This document shows, one piece after another, positions 2,695-12,065 of a stretch of DNA of 64,000 nt. The stretch spans positions 14,244-78,243 of the forward strand of contig JBBRWS010000001.1 of the NCBI GenBank assembly GCA_038249055.1, written 5' to 3'. A model generated the notes under the pieces. The model made no database searches. It was not told the origin of the DNA and was given only the letters and a program-made list of their open reading frames with translations. The translations under genes were made by a program, and so were the position numbers. How positions within the stretch are numbered: position 1 is the stretch's first letter; every line of letters begins with the position of its first letter. The stretch is from Minisyncoccia bacterium. GTDB taxonomy: Bacteria; Patescibacteriota; Minisyncoccia; Phycocordibacterales; UBA9973.

Positions 2695-5694
2695 ATGAAA
2701 AATTACGATCATAAAAAAATTGAAAAAAAATGGCAAAAAGAATGGGATAAAAATGGAATCTATAAGACCGTTAATGGAAAAGGTAAAAAGATGTATGTTC
2801 TTGATATGTTTCCATATCCGTCTGGAGTGGGTCTTCATGTGGGACACCCTCGTGGTTATATAAGTAGTGATGTATATGCTCGTATGAAGAGTATGCAAGG
2901 CTATAATGTGCTTCACCCTATGGGATATGATGCGTTTGGTTTACCAGCTGAACAGTATGCATTGCAACATAAAATACATCCCAGAAAAGCCGTTTTAGAA
3001 AATGTTAAGACTTTTAAGAAACAGCTTTCTATTATAGGACTTTCTTATGATTGGTCTCGAGAAGTAAATACAACTGACCCCAAATATTATAAATGGACAC
3101 AATGGATATTTCTTCAAATTTATAATTCTTGGTATGACAAAACAAAAAATAAAGCACGACCTATAAAAGAGCTTGAAATTATTTTTGAAAAAAGTGGAAA
3201 TCTAAAAGTAAATGCTAGTTGTAGTTTTGATGTAAAATTTTTTTCAGCAAAGGTGTGGTCTAGTTTTTCAAAAAAAGATAAGCAAGATATTTTAATGAAA
3301 TATCGTCTTGCTTATGAAGGACACAGTGAAGTAAATTGGTGTGAAAAAATGGGCACAGTTTTGGCAAATGATGAAATAGTAAATGATGCAAAAGGAAATC
3401 CAGTTTCAGAAAGAGGAGGATTTCCTGTTGAAAAAAAAATAATGCGTCAATGGTTTATGAGGATTACTGCATATGCAGACAGGTTACTATCTGGTCTTGA
3501 GGGGTTAGATTGGAGTGATCATATAAAAGAAATTCAGAAAAATTGGATAGGGAAAAGTGAGGGTAGTGAATTAGAATTTAAGATTTCAATTTCTTCAGAG
3601 GTCCAACCTCCGAAGTCAGTTGAGGTTGGACCTCTGAAGGTATTCACAACTCGTGCCGATACTATTTTTGGTGCGACGTATGTAGTGCTTGCGCCGGAAC
3701 ATCCTTTGGTTAATACCTTAAAATCAAATATATTAAACCAAGAGGAAGTTATTAAATATATAAAGTTAATAAAAAATAAGACTGATGAAGATCGTACTAA
3801 AAATGATAAGGAAAAAACAGGCGTAGAATTAAGGGGGGTTATGGCTATTAATCCAGCCAATGGAAAAGAAGTACCAATTTGGATAGCTGATTATGTACTC
3901 GCTACTTATGGTACAGGTGCTGTTATGGCAGTGCCCGCGCATGATGAGCGAGATTTTGAATTTGCAAAAAAATACAATTTAAATATAAAGCAGTCAGTAA
4001 TGCCAGTTTATGGGAATAGTGTTAAAGGAGAGGAATATAGATATGCTGTCTCAGCTTTTGTTAAAAGACCATCAGATGGTAAATATTTATTTATTAAGGC
4101 AAAAGAATTTAATCAAATTTCAAAAGTTTATGGTGGAATAGAAGAAGGTGAAAATCCTGTACTAGCTGGAATTCGAGAAGTTTTTGAAGAAACTGGATAT
4201 AAAACAAAATCAGTTACAGATTTTGGATTTTCAATTCAATCACATTTTCACCATCCCCATAAAAAAGTAAACCGTAAATTGATTAGTGATTTAGTAGAGT
4301 TGGAATTAATAGATGAAGAACAATATGAGGTAGACGAAGAAGAAGCATTGCTACATGAAGTAGTGTGGCTTACTCTCGATCAAGCAAAGAAATTAATCAC
4401 AAATCCAAAAGAATTATATGATTTTGAAATACGTGAGGGAAAAAAGTGTTTTACTGATGATGGTGTTTTGTGTAATTCAGACAATTTTTCGGGAATCTCT
4501 TCAGAGGCTGCTCGCATGCAAATAACAGAATTTGTTGGTGGAAAAATAGTCACAAAATATAAAATGAGAGACGCAATATTTGCACGTCAAAGATATTGGG
4601 GTGAACCAATACCGTTAAGGCATAATCTTGATGGAACTATAACTGAATTTAAAGAAAAAGATTTACCCCTTGAATTACCAAATGTTAAATCTTATGTTTC
4701 TATCGGTACAGGTGAGTCGCCACTTGCAGGTGTAAAGTCATGGGTAAAAGAAGGTTTTGAAACAAACACAATGCCAGGATGGGCAGGTTCATCTTGGTAT
4801 TTTTTAAGATACATGGACCCACTAAATTCAAAACAATTTGCATCAAAAAAGGCTATTGAATATTGGAGAGAAGTTGATATGTATGTAGGTGGACAAGAAC
4901 ATGCAACTGGACATTTACTCTACTCACGTTTTTGGAATAATTTCTTGTTTGATTTAGGTTGTGTTCCATTTAAAGAGCCATTTAAAAGATTAAAAAATCA
5001 AGGTATGATTCTTGCTACGGATGGGCGTAAAATGAGTAAACGTTGGAATAATGTTATAAATCCAGATGATATTGTTAATAATTATGGAGCTGATACATTA
5101 CGCATATATGAAATGTTCATGGGGCCATTTGAACAAAGTTTACCTTGGTCAACTGACAGCATTATTGGCTCACGTAGATTTTTAGATCGTATATACAGAA
5201 TTCAGGAGAAAGTTACAAATACAAAAAGTATTTTAGGTGTAGAAAAAATTATTCATAAGACTCTTAAAAAAGTAAGTGAAGATATTGAAAATTTTGCTTT
5301 CAATACAGCAGTATCTTCTATGATGATTTTAGTAAATGAGATTGAAAAGAGTGAATTTATTGGAAAAAATGATTTTAAAATATTTTTACAGATGCTCGCT
5401 CCTTTTGCCCCTCATATTACAGAAGAACTATGGGGTAATATAGGGGAAAAGAAATCTATTCATAAAAGTTCATGGCCTAAATGGGATAAAAAGAAAATAA
5501 TAGACGATGTGATTAAAATCGCTGTTCAAGTTAATGGAAAAGTTCGTGCTGAAATAATAATATCAAAGGACATGACAGAAGAAGAAATAAAAGATGTATC
5601 TTTGAAAGACAAAAATATAGTAAATTGGATTTTAAATAAAGAAATAAAAAGAATTATTTATGTTCCAAATAGAATTGTAAATATTGTTGTCTAG
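2695..5694 (+). CDS. leuS: Leucyl-tRNA synthetase, unusually long (999 aa) with editing domain plus an embedded Nudix domain and a small palindromic insertion
   Basis: HVGH and KMSKR class I motifs, TTRADTIFGATY editing domain entry, AHDERDFEFAKKY. Confidence 0.95.
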   Translation: MKNYDHKKIEKKWQKEWDKNGIYKTVNGKGKKMYVLDMFPYPSGVGLHVGHPRGYISSDVYARMKSMQGYNVLHPMGYDAFGLPAEQYALQHKIHPRKAVLENVKTFKKQLSIIGLSYDWSREVNTTDPKYYKWTQWIFLQIYNSWYDKTKNKARPIKELEIIFEKSGNLKVNASCSFDVKFFSAKVWSSFSKKDKQDILMKYRLAYEGHSEVNWCEKMGTVLANDEIVNDAKGNPVSERGGFPVEKKIMRQWFMRITAYADRLLSGLEGLDWSDHIKEIQKNWIGKSEGSELEFKISISSEVQPPKSVEVGPLKVFTTRADTIFGATYVVLAPEHPLVNTLKSNILNQEEVIKYIKLIKNKTDEDRTKNDKEKTGVELRGVMAINPANGKEVPIWIADYVLATYGTGAVMAVPAHDERDFEFAKKYNLNIKQSVMPVYGNSVKGEEYRYAVSAFVKRPSDGKYLFIKAKEFNQISKVYGGIEEGENPVLAGIREVFEETGYKTKSVTDFGFSIQSHFHHPHKKVNRKLISDLVELELIDEEQYEVDEEEALLHEVVWLTLDQAKKLITNPKELYDFEIREGKKCFTDDGVLCNSDNFSGISSEAARMQITEFVGGKIVTKYKMRDAIFARQRYWGEPIPLRHNLDGTITEFKEKDLPLELPNVKSYVSIGTGESPLAGVKSWVKEGFETNTMPGWAGSSWYFLRYMDPLNSKQFASKKAIEYWREVDMYVGGQEHATGHLLYSRFWNNFLFDLGCVPFKEPFKRLKNQGMILATDGRKMSKRWNNVINPDDIVNNYGADTLRIYEMFMGPFEQSLPWSTDSIIGSRRFLDRIYRIQEKVTNTKSILGVEKIIHKTLKKVSEDIENFAFNTAVSSMMILVNEIEKSEFIGKNDFKIFLQMLAPFAPHITEELWGNIGEKKSIHKSSWPKWDKKKIIDDVIKIAVQVNGKVRAEIIISKDMTEEEIKDVSLKDKNIVNWILNKEIKRIIYVPNRIVNIVV
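3593..3639. repeat. Palindromic element family A, copy A2, inserted within leuS coding sequence (18-bp perfect arms cttcagaggtccaacctc / gaggttggacctctgaag)
   Basis: Perfect inverted repeat read directly; encodes EVQPPKSVEVGPLK in LeuS, which has no counterpart in E. coli LeuS at that position (about 10 residues longer than E. coli here). Confidence 0.75.
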
Positions 5695-7668: not shown

Positions 7669-9492
7669 ATGGATATCAAATCAATTAGAAATTTTTCAAT
7701 CATTGCCCACATTGATCACGGCAAGAGTACTTTGGCTGACAGAATGATTGAAGTTACTGGTACGATTGAAAAGCGTAAAATGAAAGACCAGGTTCTAGAT
7801 TCAATGGATTTAGAAAGAGAGAGAGGAATTACTATAAAAATGCAACCTGTTCGTATGGAATATAAGTTAAAAAATGATAATTACATTTTAAACTTAATCG
7901 ATACACCTGGTCACATAGATTTCTCGTATGAAGTATCTCGTGCCCTAAAGGCTGTGGAAGGGTCTATACTCCTTGTGGATGCGACTCAGGGAGTGCAAGC
8001 ACAAACACTGACCACTTTACAAATGGCTCGTGACTCAGGGCTCGTAATCATTCCAGTGCTTTCAAAGATTGATTCTCCACTAGCCCGCGTTGATGAAATA
8101 AAAATGGAAGTTTCTATTTTATTAGACATAGATCCTGATTCTATATTACTTGTTTCTGGAAAGACTGGAGAAGGAGTAGCTTTATTACTTGAAGAAATAA
8201 TAAAAAAAATACCTTGTCCTCATGTAAATGAAAACCTTTTATTAGCAACTAATACTGGGCGTGCCTTAGTTTTTGATTTTAAATATGATAATCATAGAGG
8301 AGTTATAGTTTATATTCGGGTTGTTGACGGGGGTTTTAAAAAAGGGGAATCTCTTCTTTTTGCTGTTTCTTCAGAAAAATTTATTTCACTTGAAGTTGGA
8401 ACATTTTCTCCAGAAGAAGAGCCTCGGGATTATTTGGGTAGTGGAGAAATTGGATATATAGTTACTGGAATTAAAAAGCCAGGAATAGCATCCGTAGGAG
8501 ATACTATTACTTTTCTTAAAAAACCAATGCCACCTTTACCAGGTTATCAAAATCCTAAACCAGTAGTTTGGGCTTCTATATATCCAGAAAGTCAGGATGA
8601 TTTTCCAAATCTTAAACAAGCACTAAGCAGATTGCGTTTATCAGATTCATCTTTTTCTTATGAAGAAGAAAATTCTGGATCACTCGGTAGGGGGTATAGA
8701 TGTGGATTTTTGGGAATGCTTCATTTAGAAATTATTACAGAAAGATTAAATCGTGAATTTAATTTGGAATTAATAGTAACTATGCCTTCAATCACTTATA
8801 AAGTATTACTCCGTAACGGTGTTGAACAAATTATATATTCTCCTCATCTTTTTCCTGACGATGGAAATATTGTAAAAGTATTTGAACCGTGGGTTAACGT
8901 AAAGATTATAACCCCTTCTATTTATATAAGTTCGCTTATGCCATTTTTATATGATCATGAAGGATTAATAAAAGGCACAGATAATTTTGGAGATAATAGG
9001 TCATCTATTGATTTAGAAATGCCGTTACGCGAACTAATGCGTAATTTCTTTGATGATATGAAAAGTATTACTTCTGGTTATTCATCAATTTCTTATGAAA
9101 TAGGAGAGTATAAAGAAGCCGATGTAGTTAGACTAGATATAATTGTAGCAGATGAACCAATGGCAGCTTTTTGTAGAGTAGTATCACGTAGAAAAGTTGA
9201 AGAGGAAGCTAAGCAACAAGTTGAAAAATTGAAAGATATTATTCCAAGGCAGCAGTTTAATTTTAAAATTCAAGGCAAAGCGTTAGGTAGAATTATTTCA
9301 TCTGAATCAGTTTCTGCCTTCCGTAAAGATGTTCTTATGCATGGTAGTAAAATGGTTGGAGGAGGGGATGTGAGTCGTAAAAAGAAATTACTTGAGAAAC
9401 AAAAAAAGGGTAAAAAGAGAATGCAGGCAAATGCAAAAATAAATATATCTCATGAAGTTTTTTTGAAAATGATGAGAGGAACAAATAGTTAA
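7669..9492 (+). CDS. lepA: Elongation factor 4 (LepA)
   Basis: IAHIDHGKSTLADR G-domain, length 607 aa, LepA C-terminal domain. Confidence 0.95.
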   Translation: MDIKSIRNFSIIAHIDHGKSTLADRMIEVTGTIEKRKMKDQVLDSMDLERERGITIKMQPVRMEYKLKNDNYILNLIDTPGHIDFSYEVSRALKAVEGSILLVDATQGVQAQTLTTLQMARDSGLVIIPVLSKIDSPLARVDEIKMEVSILLDIDPDSILLVSGKTGEGVALLLEEIIKKIPCPHVNENLLLATNTGRALVFDFKYDNHRGVIVYIRVVDGGFKKGESLLFAVSSEKFISLEVGTFSPEEEPRDYLGSGEIGYIVTGIKKPGIASVGDTITFLKKPMPPLPGYQNPKPVVWASIYPESQDDFPNLKQALSRLRLSDSSFSYEEENSGSLGRGYRCGFLGMLHLEIITERLNREFNLELIVTMPSITYKVLLRNGVEQIIYSPHLFPDDGNIVKVFEPWVNVKIITPSIYISSLMPFLYDHEGLIKGTDNFGDNRSSIDLEMPLRELMRNFFDDMKSITSGYSSISYEIGEYKEADVVRLDIIVADEPMAAFCRVVSRRKVEEEAKQQVEKLKDIIPRQQFNFKIQGKALGRIISSESVSAFRKDVLMHGSKMVGGGDVSRKKKLLEKQKKGKKRMQANAKINISHEVFLKMMRGTNS

Positions 9493-10093: not shown

Positions 10094-10164
10094 GCGGGAT
10101 TGGTTTAGTGGTAGGATGCGACCTTCCCAAGGTTGAGGCACGAGTTCGATTCTCGTATCCCGCA
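10094..10164 (+). tRNA. tRNA-Gly (anticodon CCC)
   Basis: Acceptor gcgggat/atcccgc, anticodon loop ttCCCaa, T-loop ttcgatt; hand-folded. Confidence 0.75.
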
Positions 10165-10197
10165 CATATTTAAAAACACTGAAAGGTGTGTTTTTAA

Positions 10198-10342
10198 ATA
10201 TGTGCGGGATAGTAAGCCAACTGCTTGGCTTACGTGCGAGAATCGAAAAGCTTTTCGTTCTCCGATGGATATCGGAGCGAAAAGGTGTACTGAAGCTGTA
10301 AGCTTCGATAAACGTACTCGCGGTCTCGTATCCCGCACATAT
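10198..10342. repeat. tRNA-Gly-linked structured unit 1: 14-bp terminal inverted repeats atatgtgcgggata...tatcccgcacatat (right end identical to tRNA-Gly 3' end), internal hairpins
   Basis: TIRs and hairpins (gtaagcc-aactgc-ggcttac, ctccgat-ggat-atcggag, cgaaaagcttttcg) read directly. Confidence 0.6.
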
Positions 10343-10374
10343 CTAAAAAGACTCTTTAAAGAGTCTTTTTTAAT

Positions 10375-10540
10375 ATATGTGCGGGATAGCAAAAGAACTG
10401 CTTCTTTTGCGTGCAACGATTAGTAAATCGAACCGTGAGGAGAATCGAAAGGCTTTTCCTTGTCGAAGATGGAAAAGCACCAGCGACCGTGATTTACAAA
10501 AATCACCTACTGGGTCAGGCGAGATTTTTGTATCCCACAT
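10375..10540. repeat. tRNA-Gly-linked structured unit 2 (diverged paralog of unit 1; right TIR degenerate tatcccacat)
   Basis: Same start atatgtgcgggatag, same hairpin loop aactgc with compensatory stem caaaag/cttttg, shared gagaatcgaaag(g)cttttc block. Confidence 0.55.
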
Positions 10541-11341: not shown

Positions 11342-11386
11342 ATTGCCCAGATATAAAGTAAAAATGTTTTAAAATAAAATATAATT

Positions 11387-11459
11387 GCCTAGATAGCTCA
11401 GTTGGTAGAGCGCTCCCCTGAAGAGGGATAGGTCCCCAGTTCAAATCTGGGTCTAGGCA
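11387..11459 (+). tRNA. tRNA-Phe (anticodon GAA)
   Basis: Acceptor gcctaga/tctaggc, D-arm tagctcagttggtagagc, anticodon loop ctGAAga, T-loop ttcaaat. Confidence 0.7.
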
Positions 11460-11460
11460 C

Positions 11461-11608
11461 AATAAGTAATAGTCTTACAATTAAAATATTTATCTCAGAC
11501 TAGATAGCCAGTTCAAAGTCTTTGGTCTAGGCACAACAAATAATAGTCTTACAATTAAAATATTTACCTCAGACTAGATAGCCAGTTCAAAGTCTTTGGT
11601 CTAGGCAC
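11461..11608. repeat. Two tandem 74-bp direct repeats, each ending in a degenerate copy of the tRNA-Phe T-arm plus acceptor 3' end, followed by hairpin and an inverted partial copy (11642-11651)
   Basis: Units 11461-11534 and 11535-11608 nearly identical; ends gccagttcaaagtctttggtctaggcac vs tRNA cccagttcaaatctgggtctaggcac. Confidence 0.7.
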
Positions 11609-11756
11609 AATTAAAAAATACCTGTTAAGGTGTTTTTTTATTGTGCCTAGAAAGCGAGGATTGTGGGGTGGAGACTATTTAATTGTTTAAAAAAATTATA
11701 CAATTAAATTGTCGCAAAATTATAAAATATGAAGTTGTATAAATACCAATAATAAT

Positions 11757-12065
11757 ATGAAATCTATAAATCAAGAGGTTGTTAAAGAAATTGTTAGTTT
11801 TATTGAGGGTTCAAGTTTTTATAATAAAATTCAGATTATTACTGAAAATAGTGGACAGAAAACTGAAACTTTTTATTTTTTAAAAGAAGAAGGTATTGGG
11901 CATACTATTCTTCTTCAAAAAGAAGATGGTCAAATTGAGACAATACAAGAAACTCATATGATAGATAAAGACTTTGTTTATAAAAAATTAGATTTAATAG
12001 AAGATAATGCTAAGGTTAATATATGTGGAAATAGTGGAGACTTTATTCTCTCTATAAAATTATAA
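11757..12065 (+). CDS. Hypothetical protein
   Basis: ORF only. Confidence 0.35.
   Translation: MKSINQEVVKEIVSFIEGSSFYNKIQIITENSGQKTETFYFLKEEGIGHTILLQKEDGQIETIQETHMIDKDFVYKKLDLIEDNAKVNICGNSGDFILSIKL

Follow-up and report, generated by a model that had tools for sequence, protein, structure and literature searches.

What are the repeats that stand directly behind the tRNA-Phe gene of this genome, and by which process did they come to be there? A sequence-only reading had described two near-identical 74-bp units at this place, interpreted them as mini-tRNA-like remnants of tRNA-Phe, and proposed that they result either from repeated integration and excision of elements at the tRNA 3' end or from a tRNA-templated duplication. 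The features concerned are listed below; the window designates the whole stretch of 64,000 nucleotides that was analysed.

11342 to 11353, plus strand: ATTGCCCAGATA, partial copy (12 nt) of the tRNA-Phe 5' end with an upstream ATT, 42 nt upstream of the tRNA start (repeat search)
11387 to 11460, plus strand: tRNA-Phe(GAA), intact, CCA not encoded (ARAGORN; Rfam RF00005 at 11387-11459, 68.8 bits)
11461 to 11534, plus strand: repeat unit 1, i.e. an AT-rich leader (11461-11497) and a decayed partial copy of tRNA-Phe (11498-11534) made up of the pseudo-acceptor GACTAGA, TAG, a T-arm-like CCAG..TGG and then TCTAGGCAC (TRF, repeat search, homologous units in relatives)
11535 to 11608, plus strand: repeat unit 2, with its decayed tRNA copy at 11572-11608 (TRF, repeat search, occurrence counts)
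11600 to 11651, no strand: A/T-rich palindromic hairpin (repeat search, fold, pairwise alignments)
11645 to 11670, plus strand: stub GCCTAGAAAGCGAGGATTGTGGGGTG, a copy of the 5' acceptor followed by AAG (alignments with relatives)

The two units indeed differ at only three of their 74 positions, all located in the leader (96% identity), and TRF detects the array as a 74-bp period present in 2.4 copies (94% matches, score 308) at 11436-11610. Both have the same layout, an AT-rich leader of about 37 nt followed by GACTAGA-TAG-CCAGTTCAAAGTCTTTGG-TCTAGGCAC. The 64 kb contain exactly two occurrences of a 32-nt block, GATAGCCAGTTCAAAGTCTTTGGTCTAGGCAC, and two of a 26-nt block of the leader, where shuffles predict 0, and GGTCTAGGCAC is found three times in the window, against 0.1 expected. 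These block counts revealed no other copy of the unit in the 64 kb. Elsewhere in the window, a 21/63-bp tandem repeat (1071-1246, 8.4 or 2.6 copies) lies inside a minus-strand ORF (944-1507) and is probably a repetitive protein segment.

The derivation of the units from tRNA-Phe is supported on both sides of the copy. The last 11 nt of each unit are identical to the tRNA-Phe 3' end, and the T-arm/T-loop region is 2 nt longer than that of tRNA-Phe and carries one substitution. The proposed fusion of the acceptor and D-arm 5' part to the T-arm and acceptor 3' end fits the 5' side of the window units, GACTAGATAGC being identical to the first 11 nt of tRNA-Phe at 10 positions; the pseudo-acceptor had been drawn too short, its 5' strand being GACTAGA (11498-11504 and 11572-11578; six of seven positions as in tRNA-Phe) and not only CTAGA. 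Neither ARAGORN nor Rfam finds a tRNA in 11461-11651, even at E<=10, the homologous unit of the related locus L009 is likewise not called as a tRNA, and the mini units correspond to no Rfam family.

Two other interpretations of the unit were rejected. A sigma-70-like promoter in each unit (TAGGCA-16-TACAAT; 11454-11481 and 11528-11555), with the tRNA-type 3' end TAGGCA as -35 and the TACAAT of the leader as -10, is at background level and is unconserved in relatives. A T-box-like or codon-like reading of the motif TTCAG, the complement of the Phe anticodon loop, finds no support in the flanks of this motif, and the large element described below is devoid of a tRNA-specific loop.

The window belongs to a Nomurabacteria-like genome of the Paceibacteria (CPR). 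Comparison with relatives was based on LepA (7669-9492), used as a query that retrieved 80 related loci (68-90% identity), to which a metagenome pattern scan added L081/L082, L083, L084/86/87 and L085. The conserved gene order is LepA - DivIC-like - tRNA-Gly(CCC) - glutaredoxin - tRNA-Arg(CCT) - small ORF - tRNA-Phe - convergent hsp20. Twelve distinct homologous units were found in nine Paceibacteria genomes or contigs, always directly 3' of tRNA-Phe, with one to three units per genome, copy numbers that come from short-read MAGs in which mis-assembly is possible. L009, L017, L083 and L084 carry a single unit (L084, L086 and L087 being identical), the window and L085 carry two, L081 and L082, identical to each other, carry three divergent units, and L013 carries at least 1.5 units, its contig ending within the repeat. 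Units are absent from the nearest relative, L008, and from about 40 other loci. The LepA proteins of the carriers are 81-89% identical to that of the window, and on the LepA tree the carriers are interspersed with many non-carriers. The mini unit was never found outside the 3' side of tRNA-Phe in the relatives examined, which, with the lack of further copies in the 64 kb, led us to reject a dispersed element of the MITE or REP type. The presence of this unit in one to three copies among relatives makes the array mostly a matter of ordinary repeat turnover, albeit in a lineage in which unusual elements are drawn to the ends of tRNA genes.

The tandem duplication could also have been created or mis-counted during the assembly of short-read MAGs. 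Tandem repeats of 74 bp are difficult for short-read assemblers, as the interrupted contig of L013 recalls, but the two units of the window differ at three positions and independent assemblies from other samples place one to three units at the same location (with L081 identical to L082, and L084 to L086 and L087), so that an artefact is extremely improbable.

The 12 units are conserved very unevenly along their length. The junction block GATAGCCA.TT is invariant in all of them (alignment A2), and a TTCAG motif lies 3-7 nt upstream of this block in 11. The leader is recognisably homologous and AT-rich in every unit, with an identity of only about 50%. A CRISPR-type or TIGR-type guide array was rejected, as the leaders, which would be the spacers, are near-identical within an array and conserved between species, and no cas-like or tas-like gene is found in the neighbourhood. 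In L009, L081, L084 and L085, a clear terminator (hairpin and T-run) lies 3' of the last unit; the units are therefore likely to belong to the trailer of the tRNA transcript in these genomes.

The 3' part of the unit evolves with the neighbouring gene. Carriers harbour three variants of tRNA-Phe, which differ in the acceptor (TCTAGGC or TCTCGGC) and in the T-loop (TTCAAAT or TTCGACC), and the 3' ~25 nt of each unit carries the variant of its own tRNA (A69 vs C69, T-loop AAAT vs GACC). The 5' positions 1-4 of the pseudo-acceptor drift across units.

This raises the question of whether the units function as tRNA-like minihelix RNAs, transcribed together with tRNA-Phe. RNase P, RNase Z or the CCA-adding enzyme would recognise such mimics, which would punctuate the trailer, free a leader or mini RNA, or act as decoys for the binders of the tRNA-Phe acceptor and T-arm; the units would then be related, in minimal form, to the large tRNA-mimic element that trails other tRNAs. 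The invariant junction block and the TTCAG motif argue for it, as do the location of the units inside the tRNA transcription unit, the full pairing of pseudo-acceptor pairs 5-7 (100%), the pair 4-69 that is GC in four units and UA in four, the fact that the minihelix is the minimum-free-energy fold in three of the seven units tested, and the clearly selected tRNA-mimicking structure of the neighbouring large element. However, an overall covariation signal is absent: the proposed pairing reaches 74.2% vs 71.7% in shuffles (43 of 500 reach it), only 54% of the outer acceptor helix is paired, and double changes affect two pairs, where shuffles average 1.8. The z-scores of the folds lie between -2.1 and +0.3, no better than shuffles, and the window unit (-0.26) does not adopt the minihelix. 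Moreover, mutations or expansions affect the T-loops of the window, L013, L084 and unit 2 of L085, the T-loop of unit 2 of L081 is largely destroyed, and most relatives lack the unit altogether. Thus, the acceptor and T-stem pairs are not conserved through compensatory changes, and the mini-tRNA-like character that the sequence-only reading had attributed to the units, unseen by ARAGORN and Rfam, is not borne out. The pattern is the one left by a partial gene copy that decays while its 3' end undergoes homogenisation with the gene next to it, not that of a selected tRNA-like RNA, and a minihelix function appears doubtful.

The explanation that we favour, with a probability of roughly 0.55, is that the units are one ancient partial copy of tRNA-Phe, in which unequal recombination or slippage between the repeated tRNA 3' ends has caused expansion, contraction and homogenisation. 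The first unit would have arisen once, in the ancestor of a subclade of Nomurabacteria-like Paceibacteria, and would have consisted of the leader, the T-arm and the acceptor 3' strand, preceded by GATAG and remnants of the 5' strand. It could be either an internally deleted duplicate of the tRNA gene or a 3'-half scar. Indeed, GATAG reads as tRNA positions 6-10, with acceptor remnants before it, in the window, L009 and L085; in L083, L084 and unit 1 of L081, it reads better as the 3' strand of the anticodon stem (CCCT.CAG.GGGATAG), a reading that would turn the unit into a 3' half truncated at its 5' side and lacking 4 nt (GATAG[GTCC]CCAG). Counted by position on alignment A2, the two readings of GATAG give 28/60 vs 20/60 matches, 15 being expected at random.

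The tRNA 3' end and the unit 3' end form direct repeats of about 25 nt, 66-76 bp apart, and repeats of this length and spacing are classical substrates of slippage and unequal recombination. Unequal recombination or replication slippage between them would gain and lose units, leaving one, two, three or none, and the same recombination would keep the unit 3' ends identical to the resident tRNA. A single process could thus explain both the range of zero to three copies and the homogenisation, and what is observed, i.e. head-to-tail units, zero to three copies across loci and 3' parts that match their own tRNA, is what repeat turnover leaves. The tRNA-templated duplication that had been proposed fits the concerted evolution loosely, but this pattern is explained by ordinary unequal recombination. 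The two copies of the window would represent a recent duplication of an already diverged unit. As they lie upstream of a terminator-type hairpin, they are probably transcribed as the 3' trailer of tRNA-Phe, and would be discarded after 3' processing, presumably without any function of their own.

Several points stand against this turnover of one ancient copy. The block GATAGCCA.TT is invariant without being an exact match to either parental tRNA segment, in units with leaders of only about 50% identity, and a neutral pseudogene should not keep such a block. In addition, CPR genomes are small and prone to deletion, and would not be expected to retain DNA without function over a LepA divergence of about 10-20%. 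The copy numbers may suffer from mis-assembly, and the simple scan does not recognise a canonical terminator in the hairpin of the window.

Behind the units, the hairpin at 11600-11651 is formed by two 24-nt arms (11600-11623 and 11628-11651; 22 of 24 positions complementary, 92%) around a 4-nt loop, GTTA, and has a core that consists of an A-run, a short stem and a T-run. The 3' end of unit 2 and the trailer make up its left arm, its right arm ends in GTGCCTAGA, and pairwise alignments show that it is homologous to the hairpin found behind tRNA-Phe in L008 and L024. The inverted acceptor copy tgtgcctaga, previously described as a motif that follows the hairpin, is present but is not separate from it: it is the end of the 24-nt right arm, and the copy runs on as GCCTAGAAAGC. 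The window hairpin plus GCCTAGAAAGC aligns with the hairpin plus the start of the larger element behind tRNA-Phe in L008 and L024. The "inverted copy" is therefore the right arm of the clade's post-tRNA palindromic hairpin together with an 11-25-nt stub of another tRNA-derived unit. This stub represents either a large tRNA-mimic element truncated after its start (compare GCCGAGAAAGCACATG... in L024) or a decayed tRNA-Phe 5'-half unit (compare the upstream units of L083 and L090).

A terminator consensus scan does not call the 11600-11651 hairpin, whose core is ACCT/AGGT followed by T7; the homologous position in relatives is occupied by clear terminators. Hairpins with perfect or near-perfect arms of 21-28 nt are present at three places in the window (10156-10211, 10329-10388 and 11600-11651) and in many related loci, where they link a tRNA or unit 3' end, via an A-run, a short stem and a T-run, to its inverted copy. 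The sequence of these hairpin trailers varies between species and their palindromy is kept.

The DNA located 3' of the stub is unique to the window and includes a 102-aa ORF (ORF102, 11757-12065), between the hairpin and hsp20, that has no Pfam domain and that none of the 87 related loci contains. Other Paceibacteria carry homologues of it (46-87% identity) in differing neighbourhoods, always with the upstream motif ATTAAATTGTCGCA. ORF102 was considered as cargo of an island and rejected as uninformative, since the varied contexts of its homologues contain no mobile genes and one homologue lies directly behind a tRNA-Phe without units. Exact look-ups of the two flanking small proteins gave no match.

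The sequence-only reading had also noticed that the neighbouring tRNA-Gly is followed by stacked copies of its own 3' end. This is the case, and the copies belong to a larger structure:

10094 to 10165, plus strand: tRNA-Gly(CCC) (ARAGORN, Rfam)
10156 to 10211, no strand: palindromic hairpin with perfect arms of 24 nt, combining the tRNA-Gly 3' end, trailer and inverted copy (repeat search)
10204 to 10338, plus strand: large tRNA-mimic element, copy A (covariance model R1, 122 bits; covariation)
10329 to 10388, no strand: second palindromic hairpin, between copies A and B (repeat search)
10381 to 10539, plus strand: large tRNA-mimic element, copy B, of a different subtype, with a decayed 3' end, GTATCCCACA (R1, 82.7 bits)

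In copy A, a copy of the 5' acceptor is followed by hairpin P1, a patch antisense to the T-arm, hairpins P2 and P3, and a direct copy of the tRNA-Gly 3' end. Model R1 finds 30 copies of this element of about 110-160 nt above 60 bits, two in the window and 28 in L004-L084. All are on the tRNA strand and lie directly 3' of tRNA-Gly, Arg, Phe, Trp or Glu, or are second in a tandem pair; in L024, inserted DNA separates the element from the tRNA. The structure is strongly supported by the covariation of P1 and P3: 95.6% of cells are paired vs 68.7% in shuffles, none of 500 shuffles reaches this value and slid controls give 22-47%. The loop of P1 is an invariant AACTGCTT and that of P3 is TGTAA. The 5' end of the element copies the 5' acceptor strand of the tRNA, the internal patch is antisense to the T-stem and T-loop, and the 3' end repeats the last 14-18 nt of the tRNA; in many copies, 7/7 acceptor pairs and 9/9 T-helix pairs track the tRNA type. 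No match was found in Rfam 15. The element is a candidate for a new tRNA-mimic RNA or a small mobile element. In L008 (10440-10600), tRNA-Gly(CCC) is deleted down to its last 9 nt, ATCCCGCAC, and the hairpin and large element behind it are intact.

Copies of tRNA ends are not restricted to these two genes. In the window and the related loci, 24 of 175 tRNAs are followed by a copy of their own 3' end (at least 14 nt, at most two mismatches), none is preceded by one, and most of the downstream copies terminate a large element of about 110-160 nt. Partial copies of the 5' end occur upstream of tRNA-Phe: besides the 12-nt copy at 11342-11353 in the window, L083 has two decayed 56-nt tandem units resembling the tRNA-Phe 5' half, and L090 has a similar feature at 3745-3800. 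Self-copies therefore flank tRNA-Phe on both sides in some genomes. Other fragments include the 3' half of a different tRNA-Gly (acceptor ATTCCGC) after tRNA-Gly(CCC) in L004, L046 and L070, a 46-nt tRNA-Arg 3' half between two large elements after tRNA-Arg in L019 (12750-12810), and a Thr mini copy behind tRNA-Thr in L080.

Such a distribution recalls attachment sites, and the units could be scars of the attR type, each combining an element end with the displaced 3' half of the tRNA, left by successive integrations into tRNA-Phe whose interiors were later deleted. A direct repeat of a tRNA 3' segment downstream of an intact tRNA is present here (GGTCTAGGCAC three times, with T-arm and acceptor repeated), the own 3'-end copies of Gly, Phe, Arg, Trp and Thr tRNAs are strictly downstream, the units of L083 and L084 and unit 1 of L081 read as a contiguous 3' half from the anticodon stem-loop, and the fragments behind tRNA-Gly and tRNA-Arg are similar. 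Partial tRNAs are documented as integration scars of tycheposons (bioRxiv 10.1101/2020.12.28.424599).

The ends of some copies are also suggestive. In L023 (12868-13125), the 3' acceptor of the working tRNA-Arg, CAGGGGC, looks foreign and mismatches its own 5' strand, and the distal copy has the native CGAGGGC, as expected for a scar; however, L007 (12328-12536) shows the opposite, the distal copy behind tRNA-Gly having a foreign acceptor type. Judging from their sequences, the ends of L023 and L007 appear to be evidence of recombination with other lineages at these repeats. With the body subtypes of the large element that Gly and Arg copies have in common, these foreign ends give a hint of exchange or mobility.

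The search for recombinase-bearing elements with Phe or Gly sites was positive in relatives, exactly at the 3' ends of tRNA-Phe (L024, L038, partial in L073) and tRNA-Gly (L010, partial in L018):

L024, 9737 to ~11600: serine-recombinase element
L038, 8931 to ~10570: serine-recombinase element
L010, 10957 to 12846: serine-recombinase element
L018 and L073: partial serine-recombinase elements

These IS-like elements of about 1.9 kb consist of a large serine recombinase of 531-538 aa, with Resolvase, Recombinase and Zn_ribbon_recom domains, surrounded by G+C-rich terminal inverted repeats of 125-190 bp. Their flanks are inverted (GCAC|..|GTGC, GCACC|..|GGTG and GCACCA|..|TGGTG) and therefore indicate insertion at the centre of a palindrome formed by the tRNA 3' end and its inverted copy. 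The last ~21 residues of the recombinase are encoded by the tRNA antisense strand. Relatives thus provide elements that insert at the same tRNA ends; none of them accompanies mini units.

Several results oppose the origin of the units as scars. The leader is common to the units of an array (96% in the window, near-identical in L085), and the arrays therefore grew by tandem duplication of a single unit and not by independent integrations, contrary to what had been proposed. The whole "insert" is 35-45 nt long, contains no ORF between the repeats, and is homologous across species, in nine genomes, so that each repeat is not bounded by independently acquired DNA. The absence of an integrase from the window, noticed from the start, holds as far as tblastn with one serine recombinase and a Pfam spot check of 10 window ORFs reach, and tblastn with the same single query finds no recombinase, nor is a cargo gene seen, beside tRNA-Phe in unit-bearing stretches. 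Neither the mini-unit pattern nor three motifs of the large element gave a real match in scans of viral contigs; the single match, in L092, was rejected as due to chance, as it lies in a G+C-rich phage portal gene, without model match or tRNA. The comparison of the locus across relatives, which had been suggested as a check, thus reveals one unit type with a shared junction and leader and speaks against repeated integration, and successive att scars are a decidedly improbable origin of the units.

A broader interpretation would unite the mini units, the palindromic hairpins and the large P1-P3 element in one undescribed system of Paceibacteria that copies the tRNA acceptor and T-arm, sense and antisense, as RNA or single-stranded DNA. 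Its products would be either processed tRNA-mimic RNAs, involved in tRNA maturation or acting as decoys, or small non-autonomous mobile elements whose tRNA-matching patches set their insertion at tRNA 3' ends. The mobile version could possibly depend on the serine recombinases, which use these palindromes as insertion sites, and the GATAGCCA block of the mini unit may be a recognition site. We regard this unified system as unlikely.

Taken alone, the array in the window would be a small lineage-specific remnant of tRNA-Phe turning over behind its parent, an unsurprising finding that helps annotation and can serve to mark recombination at tRNA ends. More novel is the large tRNA-mimic element next to it, which trails at least five tRNA types and covaries strongly. 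If 3'-end copies, serine-recombinase insertions and the tRNA-mimic element were truly linked, the tRNA 3' ends of ultra-small genomes would harbour structured or mobile elements of a class not described before. Literature searches gave no account of these elements; TIGR arrays came up and do not fit.

Known systems resemble parts of this locus to various degrees. Like the att scars of islands, prophages and tycheposons, the units are stackable copies of the 3' part of a tRNA downstream of the intact gene, at tRNA ends that are insertion targets in relatives (L010, L024, L038). Unlike them, they are separated by just a 37-nt leader, are tandem duplicates of one ancient unit without integrase, and may retain part of a 5' acceptor, a feature absent from att scars. 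They share with tRNA pseudogenes and tandem duplicates in concerted evolution a head-to-tail arrangement, copy-number variation, 3' identity to the functional gene and decay elsewhere, but a mini unit is about half a tRNA plus a leader, and one short junction block is invariant without obvious reason.

Minihelices and processing mimics, such as the MALAT1 mascRNA or tRNA punctuation, also place a mimic of the acceptor and T-arm in a longer transcript beside a real tRNA, whereas the mini-unit fold has no covariation or thermodynamic support and its processing is only hypothetical. The core layout of the 11600-11651 hairpin, A-run, stem and T-run, at a site where relatives have clear terminators, is that of bidirectional intrinsic terminators; in contrast to these, its G+C core is about 4 bp, its palindrome reaches 9-10 nt into the acceptor sequence and the inverted copy, and the scan does not call it. 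Finally, the large element differs from the tRNA-like domain of tmRNA and from the YrlA Y RNA in that its acceptor and T sequences copy the upstream tRNA, two hairpins replace the T-loop, and neither an Rfam match nor an associated protein is found, but as in these RNAs its 5' and 3' ends pair as an acceptor-like helix stacked on a T-arm-like helix.
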